NCBI GenBank assembly: GCA_021815205.1
Contig: JAKAHD010000001.1
Span: 25,247 to 89,246 of the forward strand
Direction: 5' to 3'
Source of the DNA: a bacterium
GTDB taxonomy: Bacteria; Patescibacteriota; Minisyncoccia; UBA6257; GWB1-50-10
Length of the DNA stretch: 64,000 nt
Below the pieces are notes generated by a model, which did not search any database, had not been told where the DNA came from, and worked only from the letters and a program-made list of their open reading frames with translations. Positions within the stretch are counted from its first letter, which is position 1. Each line of letters begins with the position of its first letter. A program made the translations under genes and the position numbers. Shown one piece after another: positions 1 through 56,073 of this stretch.

Positions 1-34
1 TTAACGTTGGTTACCAAGGGAGTATGTGATATCA

Positions 35-68
35 CCCGGGGTGTTATGACGCGTCATAACACCCCGGG
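35..68. repeat. Palindrome family A copy 1 (core GGTGTTATGACGCGTCATAACACC, extended by CCCGG arms)
   Basis: Perfect 34-bp self-complementary sequence. The identical 24-bp core recurs at 627-650, 19216-19257 and 41445-41468. Confidence 0.9.
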
Positions 69-174
69 TAGGCAGCAATTTCCAGAATGAAAAGTGAAGA
101 TGGAGTATAATTATAAGAAATTATAAGAAAGGAGCACTATAAGCGCGGAAGAAATCGTAAGTGAACGCTACAAA

Positions 175-618
175 ATGAAGAAGGATATCAGAAAGAAAAA
201 GTTGCGTATACCCGCAATTTCCCATTATTCATCCCGCAAGGAATGGGAGCGGGCCGTATGGAAAATGATTGTAAGGTCTCCCGAAGCACTTGATGCGTTT
301 ACCGCTCCCTATGAGCGTCATTCCCTTGTGATGCGCGCCGCGGTAGTAGATAGGATTCATTCTGGAAGAAGTTATCGCGAGATCAGCAGAGAATTGTGGA
401 GTTCGCTCCAAACAATCGGCAGTATCAAGAGGGCGCTCGATGGGAAAAATTATCGAAGCTATCGGGAGCGGGGGAAGACGGAGCGGAAGAAAAGAGTATA
501 TTCCCAATCCTCCCATAGTACATCACGGCACGAACCGCAAAGGAGGACTACGCGAGTTACCGGTACCGTATCGCTGGGCGGTATCACAAGAACCCGCTAT
601 CCCGATAGACTGAAGTGA
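175..618 (+). CDS. TrpR-related YerC/YecD-family HTH DNA-binding protein
   Basis: The motif SYREISRELWSSLQTIGSIKRAL matches the YerC/YecD (Trp-repressor-like) HTH signature. The basic C-terminal tail is likely low complexity. The gene is flanked on both sides by family A palindromes. Confidence 0.55.
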   Translation: MKKDIRKKKLRIPAISHYSSRKEWERAVWKMIVRSPEALDAFTAPYERHSLVMRAAVVDRIHSGRSYREISRELWSSLQTIGSIKRALDGKNYRSYRERGKTERKKRVYSQSSHSTSRHEPQRRTTRVTGTVSLGGITRTRYPDRLK

Positions 619-626
619 ACACTACA

Positions 627-650
627 GGTGTTATGACGCGTCATAACACC
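627..650. repeat. Palindrome family A copy 2
   Basis: Exact 24-bp core GGTGTTATGACGCGTCATAACACC, immediately 3' of the YerC-like ORF. Confidence 0.9.
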
Positions 651-687
651 CCACCATACGCATGAAAGAGGAAAAGAAAGTTTGCCG

Positions 688-871
688 GAACTGTCTGCCT
701 GCGGCGGATAGCCACCTCTTCGAGGCATTTCCCTTAGGGATGGCAAAAGGAGATACGTATGTATGAATGTATGAATCAGAAACAAAGAACATATCAGAAC
801 TGTCTGCCTGCGGCGGATCTCTTTCCCTGCGGGATATCTCCCGTAGGGATGACCGAGGGAGACAAACATCT
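688..871 (+). repeat. Tandem duplicated ~111-bp leader unit (GAACTGTCTGCCTGCGGCGGA...CCxTAGGGATG...GGAGA...ATG), two copies
   Basis: A 21-nt exact repeat occurs at 688-708 and 799-819. Each is followed by a diverged but alignable hairpin-like segment and an SD-ATG. The second unit's ATG (872) is the probable true start of the downstream gene. Confidence 0.6.
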
Positions 872-2311
872 ATGAGTCAAGAGAGACGTATATGTCAAAA
901 TTGCAAATCCGAGTTCACAATTGAGCCCGACGATTTTGCGTTCTACGAGAAGATAAAGGTGCCGCCGCCCACGTGGTGTCCGGAGTGCAGGTTTAAACGG
1001 AGGGCAAGCACGATGAATGTCTATTCGCTGTATAAAAGAATGTGTGATGGATGTGGGAAGAAAGTTGTTTCCATTTATCACGAAGATCTGCCGTTTAAAA
1101 TCTATTGTTCTTCCTGTTGGTGGGGAGATTCGTGGGACGGTACAGAGTATGGCCAAGAGTATGATCCGAACAAGTCTTTTTTTGAACAAGTTCTCGAGTT
1201 AAGGAATAGAACGCCGTTCATGGCTCTTGAAACACAGGCGACTACCCATGTCAATACAGAATATACTAATTACTCCAGTAATAATAAGGATTCCTATCTT
1301 ACGTACTTTGCGGATTATTTAGATAATTGCATATATGTCTCTTTCGCGAAGAACGTGAAAGATTCCGCTGATTGTTTACGAATAAGCGACTCCGAAGAAT
1401 GTTATGGATCAGTGGGCGTCCTTAAATGTTATCGTACGTATTTTTCGGAAGAGTGTGATAATTGCGTTAACGTTTATTTTTCGAAAAACTGCTCAGGTTG
1501 TTCTGATTGTTTCGGATGCGTTAATCTCCGAAAGAAATCAAATTGCATATTCAACAAACACTACACAAAGGAAGAATATCAAAAGCGTTTGGCGGAGCTG
1601 CGCATCGGATCTTTCAGAGCAATGGAGAAATATCAGAAAGAAATTCCTTCATTTTGGAGAAAATACCCAAGCAAATTTTATCACGGAAACGCCTTGAATA
1701 TGAATGTGTCCGGAGATTACATCTCTCAGTCGAAAAATACCAGAAATGCATATCTTGTGACTCATGTAGAGGATTCGCGCTTTGTTCAGATGCTTTCGGT
1801 GCCAAAGACAAGGGACTCCTACGATTATACGGGATGGGGCGCGAACAGCGAACTTCTTTACGAGTGTCAGAGTGTCGGAGAAAATGCTTCGAGGGTCAAG
1901 TTTTCACTCCATTGTTATCCAAACGTTACAGATTGCGAATATTCATATTATGCAGTAAGCTCGAAAAACGTTTTTGGGTGTGTCAACTTGAAGAAGAAGG
2001 AGTATTGCATATTAAACAAACAATACACGAAAGAGGAATTCGATGAACTTAAAGCGAGAATTATAGAGGATATGAATAAAAGACCTTTCATCGATTCCCT
2101 TGGAAGGATTTGGAGCTATGGAGAATTCTTTCCGCCTATATTATCCCCCTTCGGCTATAACGAGACTTTAGCAATGGATTATTTTCCTATGGCAGAAGAT
2201 AGGGTAGTGGATGAGGGATTTGCGTGGAAAGAGAAGGAGAGTCAATATACCGCGACCATAAACGGATCTGTCTTCCCGATGACGTACAGGCGTCAAGGGT
2301 GGATGTCGTAG
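872..2311 (+). CDS. Cysteine-rich repeat (beta-solenoid-like Cys ladder) protein with N-terminal tandem zinc-ribbon motifs; function unknown
   Basis: The N-terminus has C-x2-C...CPECR twice. The central region has repeating ~9-11-aa units ending in Cys (EECYGSVGVLKCYRTYFSEECDNCVNVYFSKNCSGCSDCFGCVNLRKKSNC), and the motif GCVNL+KK.xC(I)(F/L)NK.YTKEE(Y/F) occurs twice. The ORF track extends the start to 767 through the repeat leader; an SD-like GAGGGA lies 13 nt before ATG 872. Confidence 0.55.
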   Translation: MSQERRICQNCKSEFTIEPDDFAFYEKIKVPPPTWCPECRFKRRASTMNVYSLYKRMCDGCGKKVVSIYHEDLPFKIYCSSCWWGDSWDGTEYGQEYDPNKSFFEQVLELRNRTPFMALETQATTHVNTEYTNYSSNNKDSYLTYFADYLDNCIYVSFAKNVKDSADCLRISDSEECYGSVGVLKCYRTYFSEECDNCVNVYFSKNCSGCSDCFGCVNLRKKSNCIFNKHYTKEEYQKRLAELRIGSFRAMEKYQKEIPSFWRKYPSKFYHGNALNMNVSGDYISQSKNTRNAYLVTHVEDSRFVQMLSVPKTRDSYDYTGWGANSELLYECQSVGENASRVKFSLHCYPNVTDCEYSYYAVSSKNVFGCVNLKKKEYCILNKQYTKEEFDELKARIIEDMNKRPFIDSLGRIWSYGEFFPPILSPFGYNETLAMDYFPMAEDRVVDEGFAWKEKESQYTATINGSVFPMTYRRQGWMS

Positions 2312-2637
2312 ATGAGATTATTGAATGTGTGAAATGCGGGAAATCATTTCGGATTGTAAAATCGGAATGGGAACTTTTAAAAAAATTGAATCTCCCCTTG
2401 CCTCGCACATGTCCGGAATGTCGGAGGATGGACCGCTGTATTCGAATCAATCCTCCGAAGATCTATCACCGCGCCTGCCAGTGCATGGGAGAAGAGTCAC
2501 TCGATGGCGTTTATATGAACACAGGAGAACATCATCACGGAAAAGGGAGGTGCCCGAACGAATTTGAGACCTCCTACGCCCCCGACCGTCCCGAGATTGT
2601 GTACTGCGAATCCTGCTACCAATCGGAGGTCGTATAA
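2224..2637 (+). CDS. Small zinc-ribbon / His-rich protein; possibly the frameshifted C-terminal part of the preceding gene
   Basis: ECVKCGKSFRIVKSEWELLKKLNLPLPRTCPECRR repeats the zinc-ribbon motif found at the N-terminus of the 872-2311 product. The ORF overlaps that gene by 88 nt in another frame. The true start is uncertain. Confidence 0.35.
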   Translation: MEREGESIYRDHKRICLPDDVQASRVDVVDEIIECVKCGKSFRIVKSEWELLKKLNLPLPRTCPECRRMDRCIRINPPKIYHRACQCMGEESLDGVYMNTGEHHHGKGRCPNEFETSYAPDRPEIVYCESCYQSEVV

Positions 2638-2639
2638 CA

Positions 2640-2664
2640 GGTGCTATGCTATAGCATAGCGGCC
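2640..2664. repeat. Palindrome family B copy 1 (GGTGCTATGCTATAGCATAGC, right arm imperfect)
   Basis: Matches the 24-bp palindrome GGTGCTATGCTATAGCATAGCACC found at 19363-19392, 56113-56136 and 56322-56357. Confidence 0.7.
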
Positions 2665-2934
2665 AAAAAAAGAAACAACCTCAAAGGTCTTCACCGTGTC
2701 ATTCTGATCCACTCCGCTAGCTGGAGGACGACAGAGAAGAATCTAAAAGCACCCAGCTCATCATTCATAAGTAGAGAGATCCTTCTCCTCCTGCGGCGGA
2801 TCAGGATGACGAAATTGGTGTTTTGAGATGGGTTCTAAAAAAGATATTCATTCAATCACCGCTATGCCCTCTCTGTGATCCGTGAGAATCCGTGTTCTTA
2901 TCTGTGATATCTATGTGATGGTATAATACCTCCA

Positions 2935-3675
2935 ATGACCAGGGGCGCGAAAAAATTCGTATATGGACTTCTTTATCTTTGTCTCTTTGCGCTTCTTGGA
3001 TACTGGATATTCGGAGGATTGTTCAGGAGCGTCCCCGCCAATCCCTCGACATGTACGGATTGCCCGCCTCAAAATCAGATCGCGCCCATTTCGCTCGTGG
3101 GAGCCGTGCGATTTTGGAAGAGCGGCGACATGGCGCATGTGACGCTCTTGGGGCAGATAAAAAACCCGAATGCCGATTACGGCGTTTCAAAACTGCCGTA
3201 TACGTTCACGTTGTACGACAAGAACGGTGCTGTCGTAGGAACGGTGCAGGGTGCGGAGTCGGTATTTCCGGGAACAACGAAGTATGTGTTCGGGATATAT
3301 GACGGAAGCGCCTACGATGTGGGAAGAACCGCGCGCGCGGACCTCGCGTTTTCGAATCCTCAATGGGTTGCCGCCGGGCAGTTTATCGCTCCGAATATCG
3401 CGGTAACCGCCGGTCCCGCGACCACCGTTTCGCAACACGGGATCGAGGTGACGGGCTCCGTGCGGAATACGAGTCCGCTCACCTCGGGAACCATCAAAGT
3501 GATCGCATTGCTCGGAAATAAGTACGGAGACCCGATCGCGGCGGGGCAGACCCTTCTCGGCGGACTTCGGAGCCTCGACCGCGCATCCTTCTCGATATTT
3601 TTCCCCGCCGATGCCTCACTCACCGCGAACGCCAACCCCTCGTTTACGAGGGTGTTTGTGAGCGTGGAGGAATAA
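2935..3675 (+). CDS. Hypothetical membrane-anchored protein (N-terminal TM helix, extracytoplasmic beta-rich domain)
   Basis: A 246-aa ORF with a hydrophobic N-terminus (LLYLCLFALLGYWIFGGLF) and a GGTATAAT-like -10 box just upstream. No recognisable family. Confidence 0.5.
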   Translation: MTRGAKKFVYGLLYLCLFALLGYWIFGGLFRSVPANPSTCTDCPPQNQIAPISLVGAVRFWKSGDMAHVTLLGQIKNPNADYGVSKLPYTFTLYDKNGAVVGTVQGAESVFPGTTKYVFGIYDGSAYDVGRTARADLAFSNPQWVAAGQFIAPNIAVTAGPATTVSQHGIEVTGSVRNTSPLTSGTIKVIALLGNKYGDPIAAGQTLLGGLRSLDRASFSIFFPADASLTANANPSFTRVFVSVEE

Positions 3676-3743
3676 TTTACTGCAAAAAAGACGATGAAAA
3701 CATACTATAACGTGCGGATCGGCGCATCAAAAAAAGTCGGTAA

Positions 3744-3768
3744 GACTTGGGCTAGCGCCCCGGAGTGC
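3744..3768. repeat. Repeat family E copy 1 (CGCTCCGGGGCGCTAGCCCAAGTC module, reverse orientation)
   Basis: GACTTGGGCTAGCGCCCCGGAG is the reverse complement of the module at 22903-22930 and 34256-34283. Confidence 0.7.
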
Positions 3769-3805
3769 ACACTTTTTTTGGTGTGACGAGTCGCACGATG
3801 CCCGC

Positions 3806-4885
3806 ATGATTTTCGATCGTCTCAAAAAACTCGATTGGGTGCTCGTGGGAGCGCTCATTTTCCTTTCTATTGTAAGTCTCGTCACGCTTGCAAGCTACGA
3901 TATGTCTTACTTTTGGAGGCAGCTCACATGGTATGTGGCGGCGTTTGCACTTATTGTATTCGGGAGCCGGCTCAACTGGTCGTGGCTTATCAGATGGCCT
4001 GTGTTTCGCTACGGAATCTACTGGATTGCAGTCGCGTTTCTCGTGATCTCGAACCTGCAGTCGCACCTCGTGCGCGGCACAAAGAGCTGGCTCATGTTCG
4101 CCGGGTTTCAGTTCGAGCCCGCCGAACTCGCGAAGCTCGGGCTTATTCTAGTACTCGCTGGTTTTTTCACGAGGCGCCATGTTGCGATGTGGCAGACCAA
4201 AAATCTTTTCGTCTCGCTTTGTTATGCGCTTATTCCGGCCGGACTTATCGCGATTCATCCCGATTTCGGTTCCACGATTGTCGTCATGAGCGTATGGCTC
4301 GGGTTCGTGCTTATGGGCGGCGTACACAAGAAAAGATTCCTGGTAGGGCTTGGGCTTGCCGTGGGATGCGGCATACTTCTCTGGACATCATTTCTAAAGC
4401 CGTATCAGAAGGATCGCTTGACTGCATTTCTCTTTCCGGAGCGTGATCCCCTCGGCATCAACTACAACGTCATCCAGTCGAAGATCGCGATCGGTTCTGC
4501 GGGATTTTTCGGAAAGGGGTTCGGAGAGGGGACGCAGATGCAGTTTCGTTTTCTCCCCGAGGCGCAGACCGACTTCATCTTCGCGGCGTTCACCGAGGAG
4601 TGGGGAGTCGTCGCTGACCTCCTCTTACTCTTGACTTTTCTCGTTATTCTCTTTAGATTAGTACACATAGGGTTGCGAGCGGAGCGCAATGAGGCGAAGT
4701 TCGTGGTACTGGGAGGAGCGCTTATCTTTTTTACCCAGTTTCTTATTAACGTCGGTTCCAACCTGGGAATCGTTCCCGTGACCGGCATTACCCTTCCCTT
4801 CGTGAGTTACGGGGGGTCAAGCCTCTTGACGGTTGCCACGCTCATAAGTATAATCCAACATATAAAAATTGAATCCTCAGGATAA
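3806..4885 (+). CDS. SEDS-family peptidoglycan glycosyltransferase (FtsW/RodA)
   Basis: A 359-aa polytopic membrane protein with the characteristic FtsW/RodA/SpoVE conserved blocks (GFQFEPAELAKLGLIL; PFVSYGGSSLL). Confidence 0.9.
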   Translation: MIFDRLKKLDWVLVGALIFLSIVSLVTLASYDMSYFWRQLTWYVAAFALIVFGSRLNWSWLIRWPVFRYGIYWIAVAFLVISNLQSHLVRGTKSWLMFAGFQFEPAELAKLGLILVLAGFFTRRHVAMWQTKNLFVSLCYALIPAGLIAIHPDFGSTIVVMSVWLGFVLMGGVHKKRFLVGLGLAVGCGILLWTSFLKPYQKDRLTAFLFPERDPLGINYNVIQSKIAIGSAGFFGKGFGEGTQMQFRFLPEAQTDFIFAAFTEEWGVVADLLLLLTFLVILFRLVHIGLRAERNEAKFVVLGGALIFFTQFLINVGSNLGIVPVTGITLPFVSYGGSSLLTVATLISIIQHIKIESSG

Positions 4886-19215: not shown

Positions 19216-19257
19216 TCTCCCGAGAGTGTTATGACGCGTCATAACACCCTCGGGAGA
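19216..19257. repeat. Palindrome family A copy 3 (extended 42-bp palindrome)
   Basis: TCTCCCGAGAGTGTTATGACGCGTCATAACACCCTCGGGAGA lies between thrS and miaA. Confidence 0.9.
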
Positions 19258-41444: not shown

Positions 41445-41468
41445 GGTGTTATGACGCGTCATAACACC
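41445..41468. repeat. Palindrome family A copy 4
   Basis: Exact GGTGTTATGACGCGTCATAACACC about 90 nt upstream of the zwf-gnd fusion start. Confidence 0.9.
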
Positions 41469-55446: not shown

Positions 55447-56073
55447 ATGCGCAGAGTGTTACCGCAAAAGTTTTTTGACCGTATAACCGAGGTTGTCGCC
55501 GAAGAGCTACTCGGGAAGTATCTCGTGCGGAGGTATAGGGGAAAGGAGATTGCGGGGATGATTACCGAGGTCGAGGTGTATGACGGTTTCAAAGACAAGG
55601 GGTCACACGCCTCGCGCGGCATGACGGAGCGGAACAAGGTTATGTTCGGCCCCGCGGGATATTGGTACCCGTACTTCACGTACGGCATGCACTGGCTCGT
55701 GAATATTACGACGCGGGAGAAAGGGTATCCGGCAGCTATCTTGATACGTGGTGTCAAAATAGCGGATTCGTGCAGAACAGACACGGAAATACGCGGAAAC
55801 AACCGGATGCTGATGCGGAATATAGACGGGCCCGCGAGAGTTACAAAATATTTTAAAATTGATGAGCGATTTTACGGGAAGCCCGCCGCGAAGAAAACGG
55901 GACTGTGGGTCGAGGATAGGCCTGCCCGCCGTATCCGTCGCGACGGAGAAGGCGGGAGAGTGCGGGGAAAAAAGATGAAAATAAAAAAAAGTGCCCGCAT
56001 CGGGATTGAGTATGCGGGAGAATATTGGAAAAAACGAAAATGGCGATTTACTTTAGACGCCCATGACCGCTGA
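55447..56073 (+). CDS. mpg: DNA-3-methyladenine glycosylase (Mpg/AAG family)
   Basis: ELLGKYLVRRYRGKEIAGMITEVEVYDGFKDKGSHASRG...GPAGYWYPYFTYGMHWLVNITT is the canonical AAG fold signature. It carries a basic C-terminal tail. Confidence 0.85.
   Translation: MRRVLPQKFFDRITEVVAEELLGKYLVRRYRGKEIAGMITEVEVYDGFKDKGSHASRGMTERNKVMFGPAGYWYPYFTYGMHWLVNITTREKGYPAAILIRGVKIADSCRTDTEIRGNNRMLMRNIDGPARVTKYFKIDERFYGKPAAKKTGLWVEDRPARRIRRDGEGGRVRGKKMKIKKSARIGIEYAGEYWKKRKWRFTLDAHDR

Follow-up and report, generated by a model that had tools for sequence, protein, structure and literature searches.

In this study, we analysed a 64-kb stretch of Patescibacteria DNA (contig JAKAHD010000001.1 of assembly GCA_021815205.1; 64,000 nucleotides [nt], hereafter the window) and found that its positions 872 to 2637 are one gene, which lies in two overlapping reading frames and encodes a protein with a predicted zinc-finger module at each end. 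The explanation that best accounts jointly for the observations, and in which we have high confidence, is that the gene is a member of a large Patescibacteria family that carries a real, unprogrammed 1-nt deletion and is probably beginning to decay. The features of the gene and of its leader are all on the forward strand, and positions are those of the window unless stated otherwise.

One gene in two reading frames

Two open reading frames (ORFs), 767–2311 and 2224–2637, cover the locus and share 88 nt. An earlier reading of the window (the initial annotation) had placed the second ORF in the +1 frame. The elements that it described were all found in their places; the frame needed revision. 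The start of ORF1 (767) is 2 modulo 3 and that of ORF2 (2224) is 1, which puts ORF2 in the −1 frame with respect to ORF1 and fits a 1-nt deletion rather than a +1 shift. Conservation with relatives makes ATG 872, from which the protein begins MSQERRICQNCK, a likelier true start than ATG 767. Read from there, ORF1 (872–2311) encodes 479 amino acids (aa), comprising family residues 1–467 and a 12-aa out-of-frame tail, FPMTYRRQGWMS; the truncated product would end in VFPMTYRRQGWMS. In ORF2 only the part at 2272–2637 (residues 468–588) is homologous to the family. Joining 872–2272 to 2272–2637 in silico gives a fusion of 588 aa with 34 cysteines (5.8%, compared with a family median of 6.0%).

Searching protein databases with this fusion returned more than 7,650 matching proteins among 8,000 scored candidates, with E-values against family members down to 1e-272; all were labelled hypothetical and all came from Patescibacteria. 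The best 120 matches were almost all single ORFs, of 563–600 aa for the most part and 520–600 aa overall, with 47–65% identity and mostly 99–100% query coverage. The alignment was continuous across the junction, and in hmmsearch with the family profile ORF1 occupied positions 1–470 and ORF2 positions 464–567. The suspicion voiced in the initial annotation, that a larger single protein had been broken by a frameshift, is thus backed by the single-ORF relatives for which it had proposed a search: the frame-corrected fusion aligned end to end, at 99–100% coverage, with more than 100 of them. Relatives organised as two independent genes with unlike zinc segments, the outcome that would have spoken for separate proteins, were not what was found.

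The site of the lesion could be placed by homology. The family consensus at the junction is T-x4-D-L-P-D, where the window reads TATINGS[V]LPDD, and the codon alignment sets GAT CTT CCG GAT of the homologues against G-T CTT CCC GAT of the window. One base of the conserved Asp codon is missing between 2270 and 2271 (frameshift site 2270–2272), and the C-terminal zinc module, encoded by the final 121 codons, is displaced into the −1 frame. The single uninterrupted ORF that is typical of the family is thus lacking in the window copy, and the same 1-nt deletion is present in three assemblies.

Single-base indels are common in metagenome-assembled genomes, and an error of sequencing or assembly in a gene that is in truth intact had to be considered; we regard it as the least probable of the explanations weighed here. 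The DNA at 2150–2350 is base-for-base identical in the contigs ENA ERZ27237541 and Logan SRR13299515 and SRR13300764, which belong to three assemblies made independently from different runs and samples, and the same truncated product (P0001, 432 aa) occurs on 8 contigs. The lesion site is not a homopolymer. Among 5.8 billion database clusters there was no near-identical intact allele, and none closer than 65% identity. Because the lesion is identical in independent assemblies, lies outside any homopolymer and has no intact near allele, it is judged a genuine, population-wide mutation that is apparently fixed.

The initial annotation had offered a programmed shift as an alternative, in which −1 ribosomal frameshifting or transcriptional slippage would restore the 588-aa protein. 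The 88-nt overlap of the frames and the full conservation of the downstream frame would suit such a mechanism, and dnaX and orfAB of IS3 likewise consist of a pair of overlapping ORFs whose second member lies in the −1 frame. In contrast to those genes, the window gene has neither a slippery heptamer nor a stimulatory structure nor a conserved shift. The stretch in which a shift is permitted (2215–2311) contains neither an X XXY YYZ heptamer nor a homopolymer run, a codon-by-codon reading of 2213–2311 revealed no slippery heptamer and no A or T run, and the junction defined by homology reads TCT GTC TTC CCG. The predicted fold of 2274–2360 (−20.1 kcal/mol) is not unusually stable (z −0.73; 46 of 200 shuffled sequences were at least as stable). 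Orthologues, close and distant, are all single ORFs, more than 100 of them unshifted, and other broken copies are interrupted at other sites and by different lesions: a TAA nonsense codon in L041 (profile position ~295) and in L075 (~243), and a frameshift in L071 (~185). Inactivated copies make up about 2% of the roughly 240 copies seen, and these unrelated breaks show that random inactivation recurs in the family. Taken together, the lack of a slippery site, of a stimulatory RNA structure and of a conserved shift argues for mutation, and we consider recoding very improbable.

A functional split gene, in which the body of 479 aa would cooperate with a C-terminal zinc module (about 137 aa) translated separately from GTG 2224, is a more serious alternative, although we still think it unlikely. 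The downstream part shows no decay of any kind. Among alignment columns that are at least 90% conserved, the window copy retains 104 of 107 upstream of the shift and 22 of 22 downstream, and the ratio of C-part to N-part identity against 69 relatives is 0.974, with a family mean of 0.974 ± 0.049. The break falls in a variable interdomain linker, the lesion is fixed in all 8 contigs, stand-alone zinc-module ORFs adjoin family genes elsewhere (L009, L022, L055), and a sequence resembling a Shine–Dalgarno (SD) site, GAGGGA, lies 5 nt upstream of GTG 2224. However, this GTG and the SD-like bases simply encode the conserved EGFAW and need not be a start, no orthologue shows such an organisation, and the stand-alone modules at other loci may themselves derive from decayed copies. 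A recent event would explain the absence of decay equally well, and the nearest relative, at only 63% identity, is too distant to date the deletion. The intact state of the downstream part therefore suggests either that the deletion is recent or that the C-terminal module is still under selection.

Two points tell against the explanation preferred here: the lesion was judged from assembled contigs, and the 121 conserved downstream codons also fit a still-functional split gene. We nevertheless favour an unprogrammed deletion. A single base was lost from the Asp codon of the D-L-P-D linker, and ribosomes would then make a 479-aa protein without the C-terminal zinc module. That module would be missing altogether or, with lower probability, be translated on its own from GTG 2224. 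The copy itself is a low-GC orphan and probably a paralogue that was acquired or moved here recently and is starting to decay.

Domain architecture and comparison with known folds

An AlphaFold2 model built on a 70-sequence alignment (mean predicted local distance difference test score 85.3; predicted template-modelling score 0.85) was confident overall and poor only at residues 274–304. In this model a zinc-finger pair is followed by a beta-solenoid, a duplicate of that solenoid and an alpha/beta linker, and a further zinc-finger pair closes the protein. The N-terminal pair consists of a treble-clef-type finger resembling PF13451 (872–1012, residues 1–47; C8-x2-C11 ... C36-P-E-C39-R) and a second ribbon (1031–1141, residues 54–90; C58-x2-C61 ... 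C79-x2-C82-WW-x-D-x-WD). Beta-solenoid 1 (1232–1567, residues 121–232) keeps a strict 12-residue coil register and is separated from solenoid 2 by two helices (residues 233–262). Solenoid 2 (1664–2029, residues 265–386), likewise made of 12-residue coils, is a second copy of solenoid 1 within the protein, in which most of the cysteines are gone. There are two cap motifs, GCVNLRKKSNCIFNKHYTKEEY at 1514–1579 and GCVNLKKKEYCILNKQYTKEEF at 1976–2041, the latter being the most conserved segment of the family. A helix and an alpha/beta linker follow (2030–2272, residues 387–475), with the conserved motifs GRxWxYGEFFP and YNET. The finger and ribbon pair is then repeated as the C-terminal zinc module (residues 482–588), made up of a treble-clef-type finger (2314–2445; C486-x2-C489 ... 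C514-P-E-C517-R) and a zf_Tbcl_2-like or LIM-like ribbon (2464–2637) that ends in IVYCESCYQSEVV before the stop codon and carries an insert of about 25 aa also seen in a 589-aa subfamily.

In solenoid 1, coil positions 3, 6, 9 and 12 are occupied by Cys, Ser or small residues, which gives rise to a cysteine ladder, and one coil is all-Cys (C207, C210, C213, C216). The initial annotation had described some 400 aa of repeats each ending in Cys; the ladder is in fact limited to about residues 150–228 (~80–100 aa) and is built of 12-residue coils. Solenoid 2 has aromatic residues in place of most of these cysteines, so the fold does not depend on Cys. The solenoids bear no marked net charge, and DNA mimicry or a charge bias, which was considered for them, was set aside.

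Profile–profile comparison with hhalign matched the N- and C-terminal zinc modules to each other with 99.6% probability (E 1e-23) and solenoid 1 to solenoid 2 with the same probability (E 3.5e-24), which at the level of sequence profiles proves both internal duplications. Several features noted in the initial annotation are accounted for by them. ORF2 does repeat the zinc-ribbon motif, as a true duplicate of the N-terminal module, and the block GCVNL..K..CI.NK.YTKEE is indeed present twice, at nt 1510–1577 and 1972–2039, with 71% nt identity. Its duplicated CPECR ribbons stand in part: CPECR occurs at fused residues 36–40 and again at 514–518, the second copy within ORF2, while the N-terminus has a single CPECR finger, its second ribbon being of the form CxxC...CxxCWW.

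The public gene calls at this locus comprise a 432-aa product (1013–2311) and a 50-aa product (2485–2637), or 3001–4299 and 4473–4625 in the coordinates of locus L001. The 432-aa call, P0001, begins at Met48, with an internal GGAGG preceding ATG 1013, and misses the first finger. Because both calls omit the CPECR fingers, automated annotation hides the domain architecture. The main value of the frameshift is as an annotation warning; otherwise it is a case of routine gene decay or splitting.

We compared the protein with known families and folds. The window protein matched PF13451 (zf_Tbcl) at residues 6–46 with 17.4 bits (E 0.004; Pfam gathering threshold 24 bits), and its ORF2 matched PF23477 (zf_Tbcl_2) with 12.3 bits (gathering threshold 27 bits). 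Among 70 family members, 28 matched PF13451 (best E 1e-5) and 50 matched PF23477 (best E 2e-9). The CxxC...CPxCR fingers at the termini and the ...VYCxxC(W/Y) ribbons thus resemble these two "probable treble clef" models across the family; the window protein differs in that its own scores are below the cut-offs, and the domains span less than one-third of the protein. The core between the terminal fingers was without a match in Pfam, NCBIfam, PADLOC or the PDB. The PADLOC anti-phage defence models gave no hits, and tblastn against 50,697 phage records gave no match. In PHROGs the sole match was phrog_15341 (residues 152–235, within the cysteine ladder; E 1e-7), which has no annotated function. 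The initial annotation could assign the protein to no known family, which is fair, given two weak matches of its terminal fingers and an unmatched core; searches with hidden Markov models disclosed no well-characterised Cys-rich family. Literature searches found no description of the family.

A profile search of the PDB gave a marginal LIM-like match of the C-terminus (E 0.005), in which CPxCR...C..C...YCxxCY aligns weakly with the double fingers of CRP and PINCH. However, the similarity to the LIM domain (PF00412, matched by 3 of the 70 family members) is marginal, and the proteins here are bacterial and have another domain context. The binding of zinc by the fingers is itself a prediction.

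Foldseek was run against the PDB with the full model and, separately, with solenoid 1, and returned generic beta-helices only (E at least 0.015, TM score at most 0.27), the top hits being GlmU, LpxD, gamma-carbonic anhydrase, Qnr, AlbG and SV2; against BFVD, only tiny phage zinc-ribbon proteins were returned, none of them significant. The window protein is predicted to share a short-coil beta-helix with pentapeptide-repeat proteins (Qnr, AlbG and the luminal domain of SV2) and with left-handed beta-helices (GlmU, LpxD and gamma-carbonic anhydrase), and in its model small residues are predicted to face inward, as in other beta-solenoid proteins. It differs from them in its coil of 12 residues, not 20 or 18, and in the lack of a significant superposition. 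A 12-residue, Cys-laddered beta-solenoid is found in the Tenebrio antifreeze protein. Unlike the latter, the window protein has no signal peptide or other hydrophobic segment and is predicted to be cytoplasmic, and antifreeze-like disulfides are therefore unlikely.

Genomic setting and leader repeats of the window copy

The window contains only one copy of the family, outside any tandem-array context. The gene has a GC content of 42.6% (44.5% at third codon positions, GC3), which is 2.7 standard deviations below the window mean (51.9 ± 3.4% in 1.5-kb windows); the nearby rodA, mltG and rpoB have 52–55% GC and 62–66% GC3. The closest intact relative, P0002, comes from a genome with 39% GC. The low GC content of the gene and the composition of the genome that harbours P0002 fit a relocated or horizontally acquired paralogue in which decay has begun.

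As the initial annotation had proposed, the leader is a diverged tandem duplication whose units each end in an SD sequence and an ATG. Units 662–770 and 771–871 are 62% identical over 109 columns (score 25, compared with −27.6 ± 5.3 for shuffled sequences), share an exact 22-nt repeat, GAACTGTCTGCCTGCGGCGGAT, at 688–709 and 797–818 (two matches, with none expected by chance), and both close with SD-like GGAG followed by ATG. Each contains a small stub ORF. Stub A (662–766) encodes MKEEKKVCRNCLPAADSHLFEAFPLGMAKGDTYV followed by a stop codon, and its first 11 codons mimic the family N-terminus (M..E.K.C.NC); at its end stands an SD-like AAAGGAGA and then a cluster of ATGs. Stub B (771–875; alternative start ATG 759) encodes MNQKQRTYQNCLPAADLFPCGISPVGMTEGDKHL followed by a stop codon and contains a perfect 10-bp hairpin at about 825–848. 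Its TGA (873–875) overlaps the main ATG 872 to form ATGA, the same style of junction that is seen between tandem paralogues elsewhere. The first 11 codons of the two unit ORFs, which open with MKEEKKVCRNCLPAAD and MNQKQRTYQNCLPAAD and run to a stop, are in register with MSQERRICQNC of the gene (consensus M..E.K.CQNC). The leader motif recurs a third time, incompletely, as CCTGCGGCGGATC-AGGATGAC at 2790–2815, 150 nt downstream of the stop codon, and it was found in contigs of the window species only.

These similarities suggest that the leader units are what remains of a tandem duplication that took in the SD sequence, the ATG and the first codons of such a gene. It speaks against this that the stubs resemble the 5′ end of the gene over 11 codons only and that the match of the whole unit is not significant. 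The idea that each stub is a paralogue with an internal deletion, its 5′ end joined to its 3′ end, was also considered and rejected: the tails do not convincingly resemble the C-terminus of the family, and the match of the whole unit to the 5′ end of the gene is again not significant. A search of region 1–3000 against Rfam at E up to 10 gave only noise-level microRNA hits on a palindrome, and at gathering thresholds the whole window gave two tRNAs only. Because Rfam offered no real match, the leader is not a known riboswitch or leader RNA. A scan for promoters and terminators gave counts no different from those of shuffled sequences.

Several other features of the window were recorded. Two independent Logan contigs from different runs (L002 and L003) both end at about 961, inside the 5′ region of the gene, just downstream of the leader repeats and within a GC-rich GGTGCCGCCGCCC stretch; this shared end may come from an assembly break induced by the repeats or by coverage. 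A perfect palindrome, GGTGTTATGACGCGTCATAACACC, occurs at 38–65, 627–652, 19225–19248 and 41445–41468, with none expected in 64 kb. One of its copies has one mismatch, all are intergenic, and two flank a TrpR-like ORF; it could be an operator, an element of the repetitive extragenic palindromic type, or a hairpin that lacks a T-run and terminates transcription in both directions. The ORF so bracketed, by palindromes 587 nt apart, encodes a 147-aa helix–turn–helix protein (175–618) with weak matches to Trp_repressor or YerC-like (E 1.7e-5) and to HTH_SB and HTH_28, and the whole has the look of a small cassette. Between the zinc-finger gene and rodA/mltG/rpoB there is an ORF of 246 aa (2935–3675) with a hydrophobic N-terminus and no Pfam match. 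A second low-GC island (55500–57500, about 41% compared with 52% for the window) includes an ORF of 194 aa on the reverse strand (56556–57140) and, like the zinc-finger gene, may be foreign DNA.

The Patescibacteria family and its neighbourhoods

A profile search of 1.84 billion cluster representatives identified 5,212 clusters, formed at 50% identity, with E up to 1e-3 and 2,146 with E up to 1e-30. The family consists of proteins predicted to be soluble and is restricted to Patescibacteria, mainly Paceibacteria/Parcubacteria lineages. For a closer view, 80 loci were fetched from GTDB species representatives and analysed by our own ORF calling and hmmsearch. They carry the labels Nomura-, Jorgensen-, Staskawicz-, Giovannoni- and Liptonbacteria and Saccharibacteria, apart from a few generic or other labels, among them one locus labelled Gammaproteobacteria.

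The window copy has the set of features conserved in the family, namely four CxxC pairs at each end, CWWxDxWD, two FGCxNL..K.YCI.N.QYxKEEY caps and GRxYxYGEFFP. Proteins from metagenome-assembled genomes such as AAB432_02590 and UY26_C0003G0224 (Candidatus Jorgensenbacteria) are collinear with it over their full length, within the 47–65% identity range. They have in common with it all invariant Cys, Trp and Tyr residues, the two caps and the zinc module at each end. It differs from them in being split by the 1-nt deletion, in being solitary and in its atypically low GC content. Across 178 full-length copies the fingers, both caps and GRxYxYGEFFP are conserved, whereas the solenoid faces and the helices around residues 240–262 are variable.

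Tandem arrays are frequent in the family. At least two full-length copies on the same strand within ±8 kb were present at 47 of 83 loci, and the largest arrays hold 7–8 copies (L014 and L016), every copy being on the same strand. The spacers have a median of 41 nt, and 31 of 128 junctions overlap. Short ORFs with a single zinc module also stand beside full-length copies, an 82-aa N-terminal module in L009 (6737–6985) and C-terminal modules in L022 (3539–3742) and L055 (4366–4548); such ORFs are what is left of decayed paralogues or else true mini-proteins.

Protein clustering revealed that the dominant neighbour of the family is a soluble VirD4/TrwB/HerA-like ATPase. It is represented by 44 proteins at about 28 of 85 loci, and in 27 cases its gene is the immediate neighbour on the same strand. 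The ATPase has a short form (485–526 aa) that ends in ...EEPLI or ...EPMI and a long form (613–866 aa) that carries a PF23477 finger (E 1e-15) and often ends in EVPEDVLRKILE; these conserved C-terminal tails are possible docking peptides. Examples beside arrays are at L006 8787–10628, L050 13734–16334, L063 7796–9343 and L008 3195–4676. A recurrent cassette upstream of some arrays, seen in L008 (228–4676), has the order Sigma70_r4 plus HARE-HTH protein, a protein of about 461 aa (DUF8128), a protein of about 174 aa, the VirD4-like ATPase and CutA1, and its components occur in several other fetched loci. Other recurrent neighbours are housekeeping-like (L19, an RluA-type pseudouridine synthase, CutA1, DnaK and DnaJ). 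The gatC-X-gatA arrangement seen with the closest intact homologue (L004 4673–8242) did not recur in other loci, and this lead was dropped.

A survey published in 2025 counted 5,713 VirD4-like homologues of type IV coupling proteins in 2,918 Patescibacteria genomes, 148 of them near virB4, and its authors could not exclude an exaptation of these homologues (PMC12102498). Judged by adjacency, the family offers a candidate partner for such orphan VirD4-like ATPases, by association only. With low confidence, we picture its members as zinc-stabilised solenoid scaffolds with variable surfaces, which would diversify by tandem duplication and may work together with VirD4/HerA-like ATPases that carry zf_Tbcl_2. 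In a bolder version, which we think rather improbable, the family would be the missing partner of these ATPases: the solenoids would be recruited through the shared zf_Tbcl_2 finger and serve as cargo or adaptors in an episymbiont-specific system for host interaction or nucleic acids, and the all-Cys coil would be a new metal site within the solenoid. Set against such a role are the absence of a VirD4-like ATPase and of the other recurrent neighbours within the 64 kb of the window, and the choice of the 85 loci by similarity, the association being one of gene neighbourhood only.

In summary, the locus analysed here is an ordinary broken copy, and the interest lies in the large, structurally distinctive and unstudied family to which it belongs. 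The family has thousands of members, with a core that has no Pfam model or structural relative, and arrays of up to 7–8 paralogues of about 1.7 kb each amount to several percent of some of the smallest bacterial genomes. The role of VirD4-like ATPases in Patescibacteria is an acknowledged question, for which the architecture and the gene neighbourhood of this family give a testable handle.

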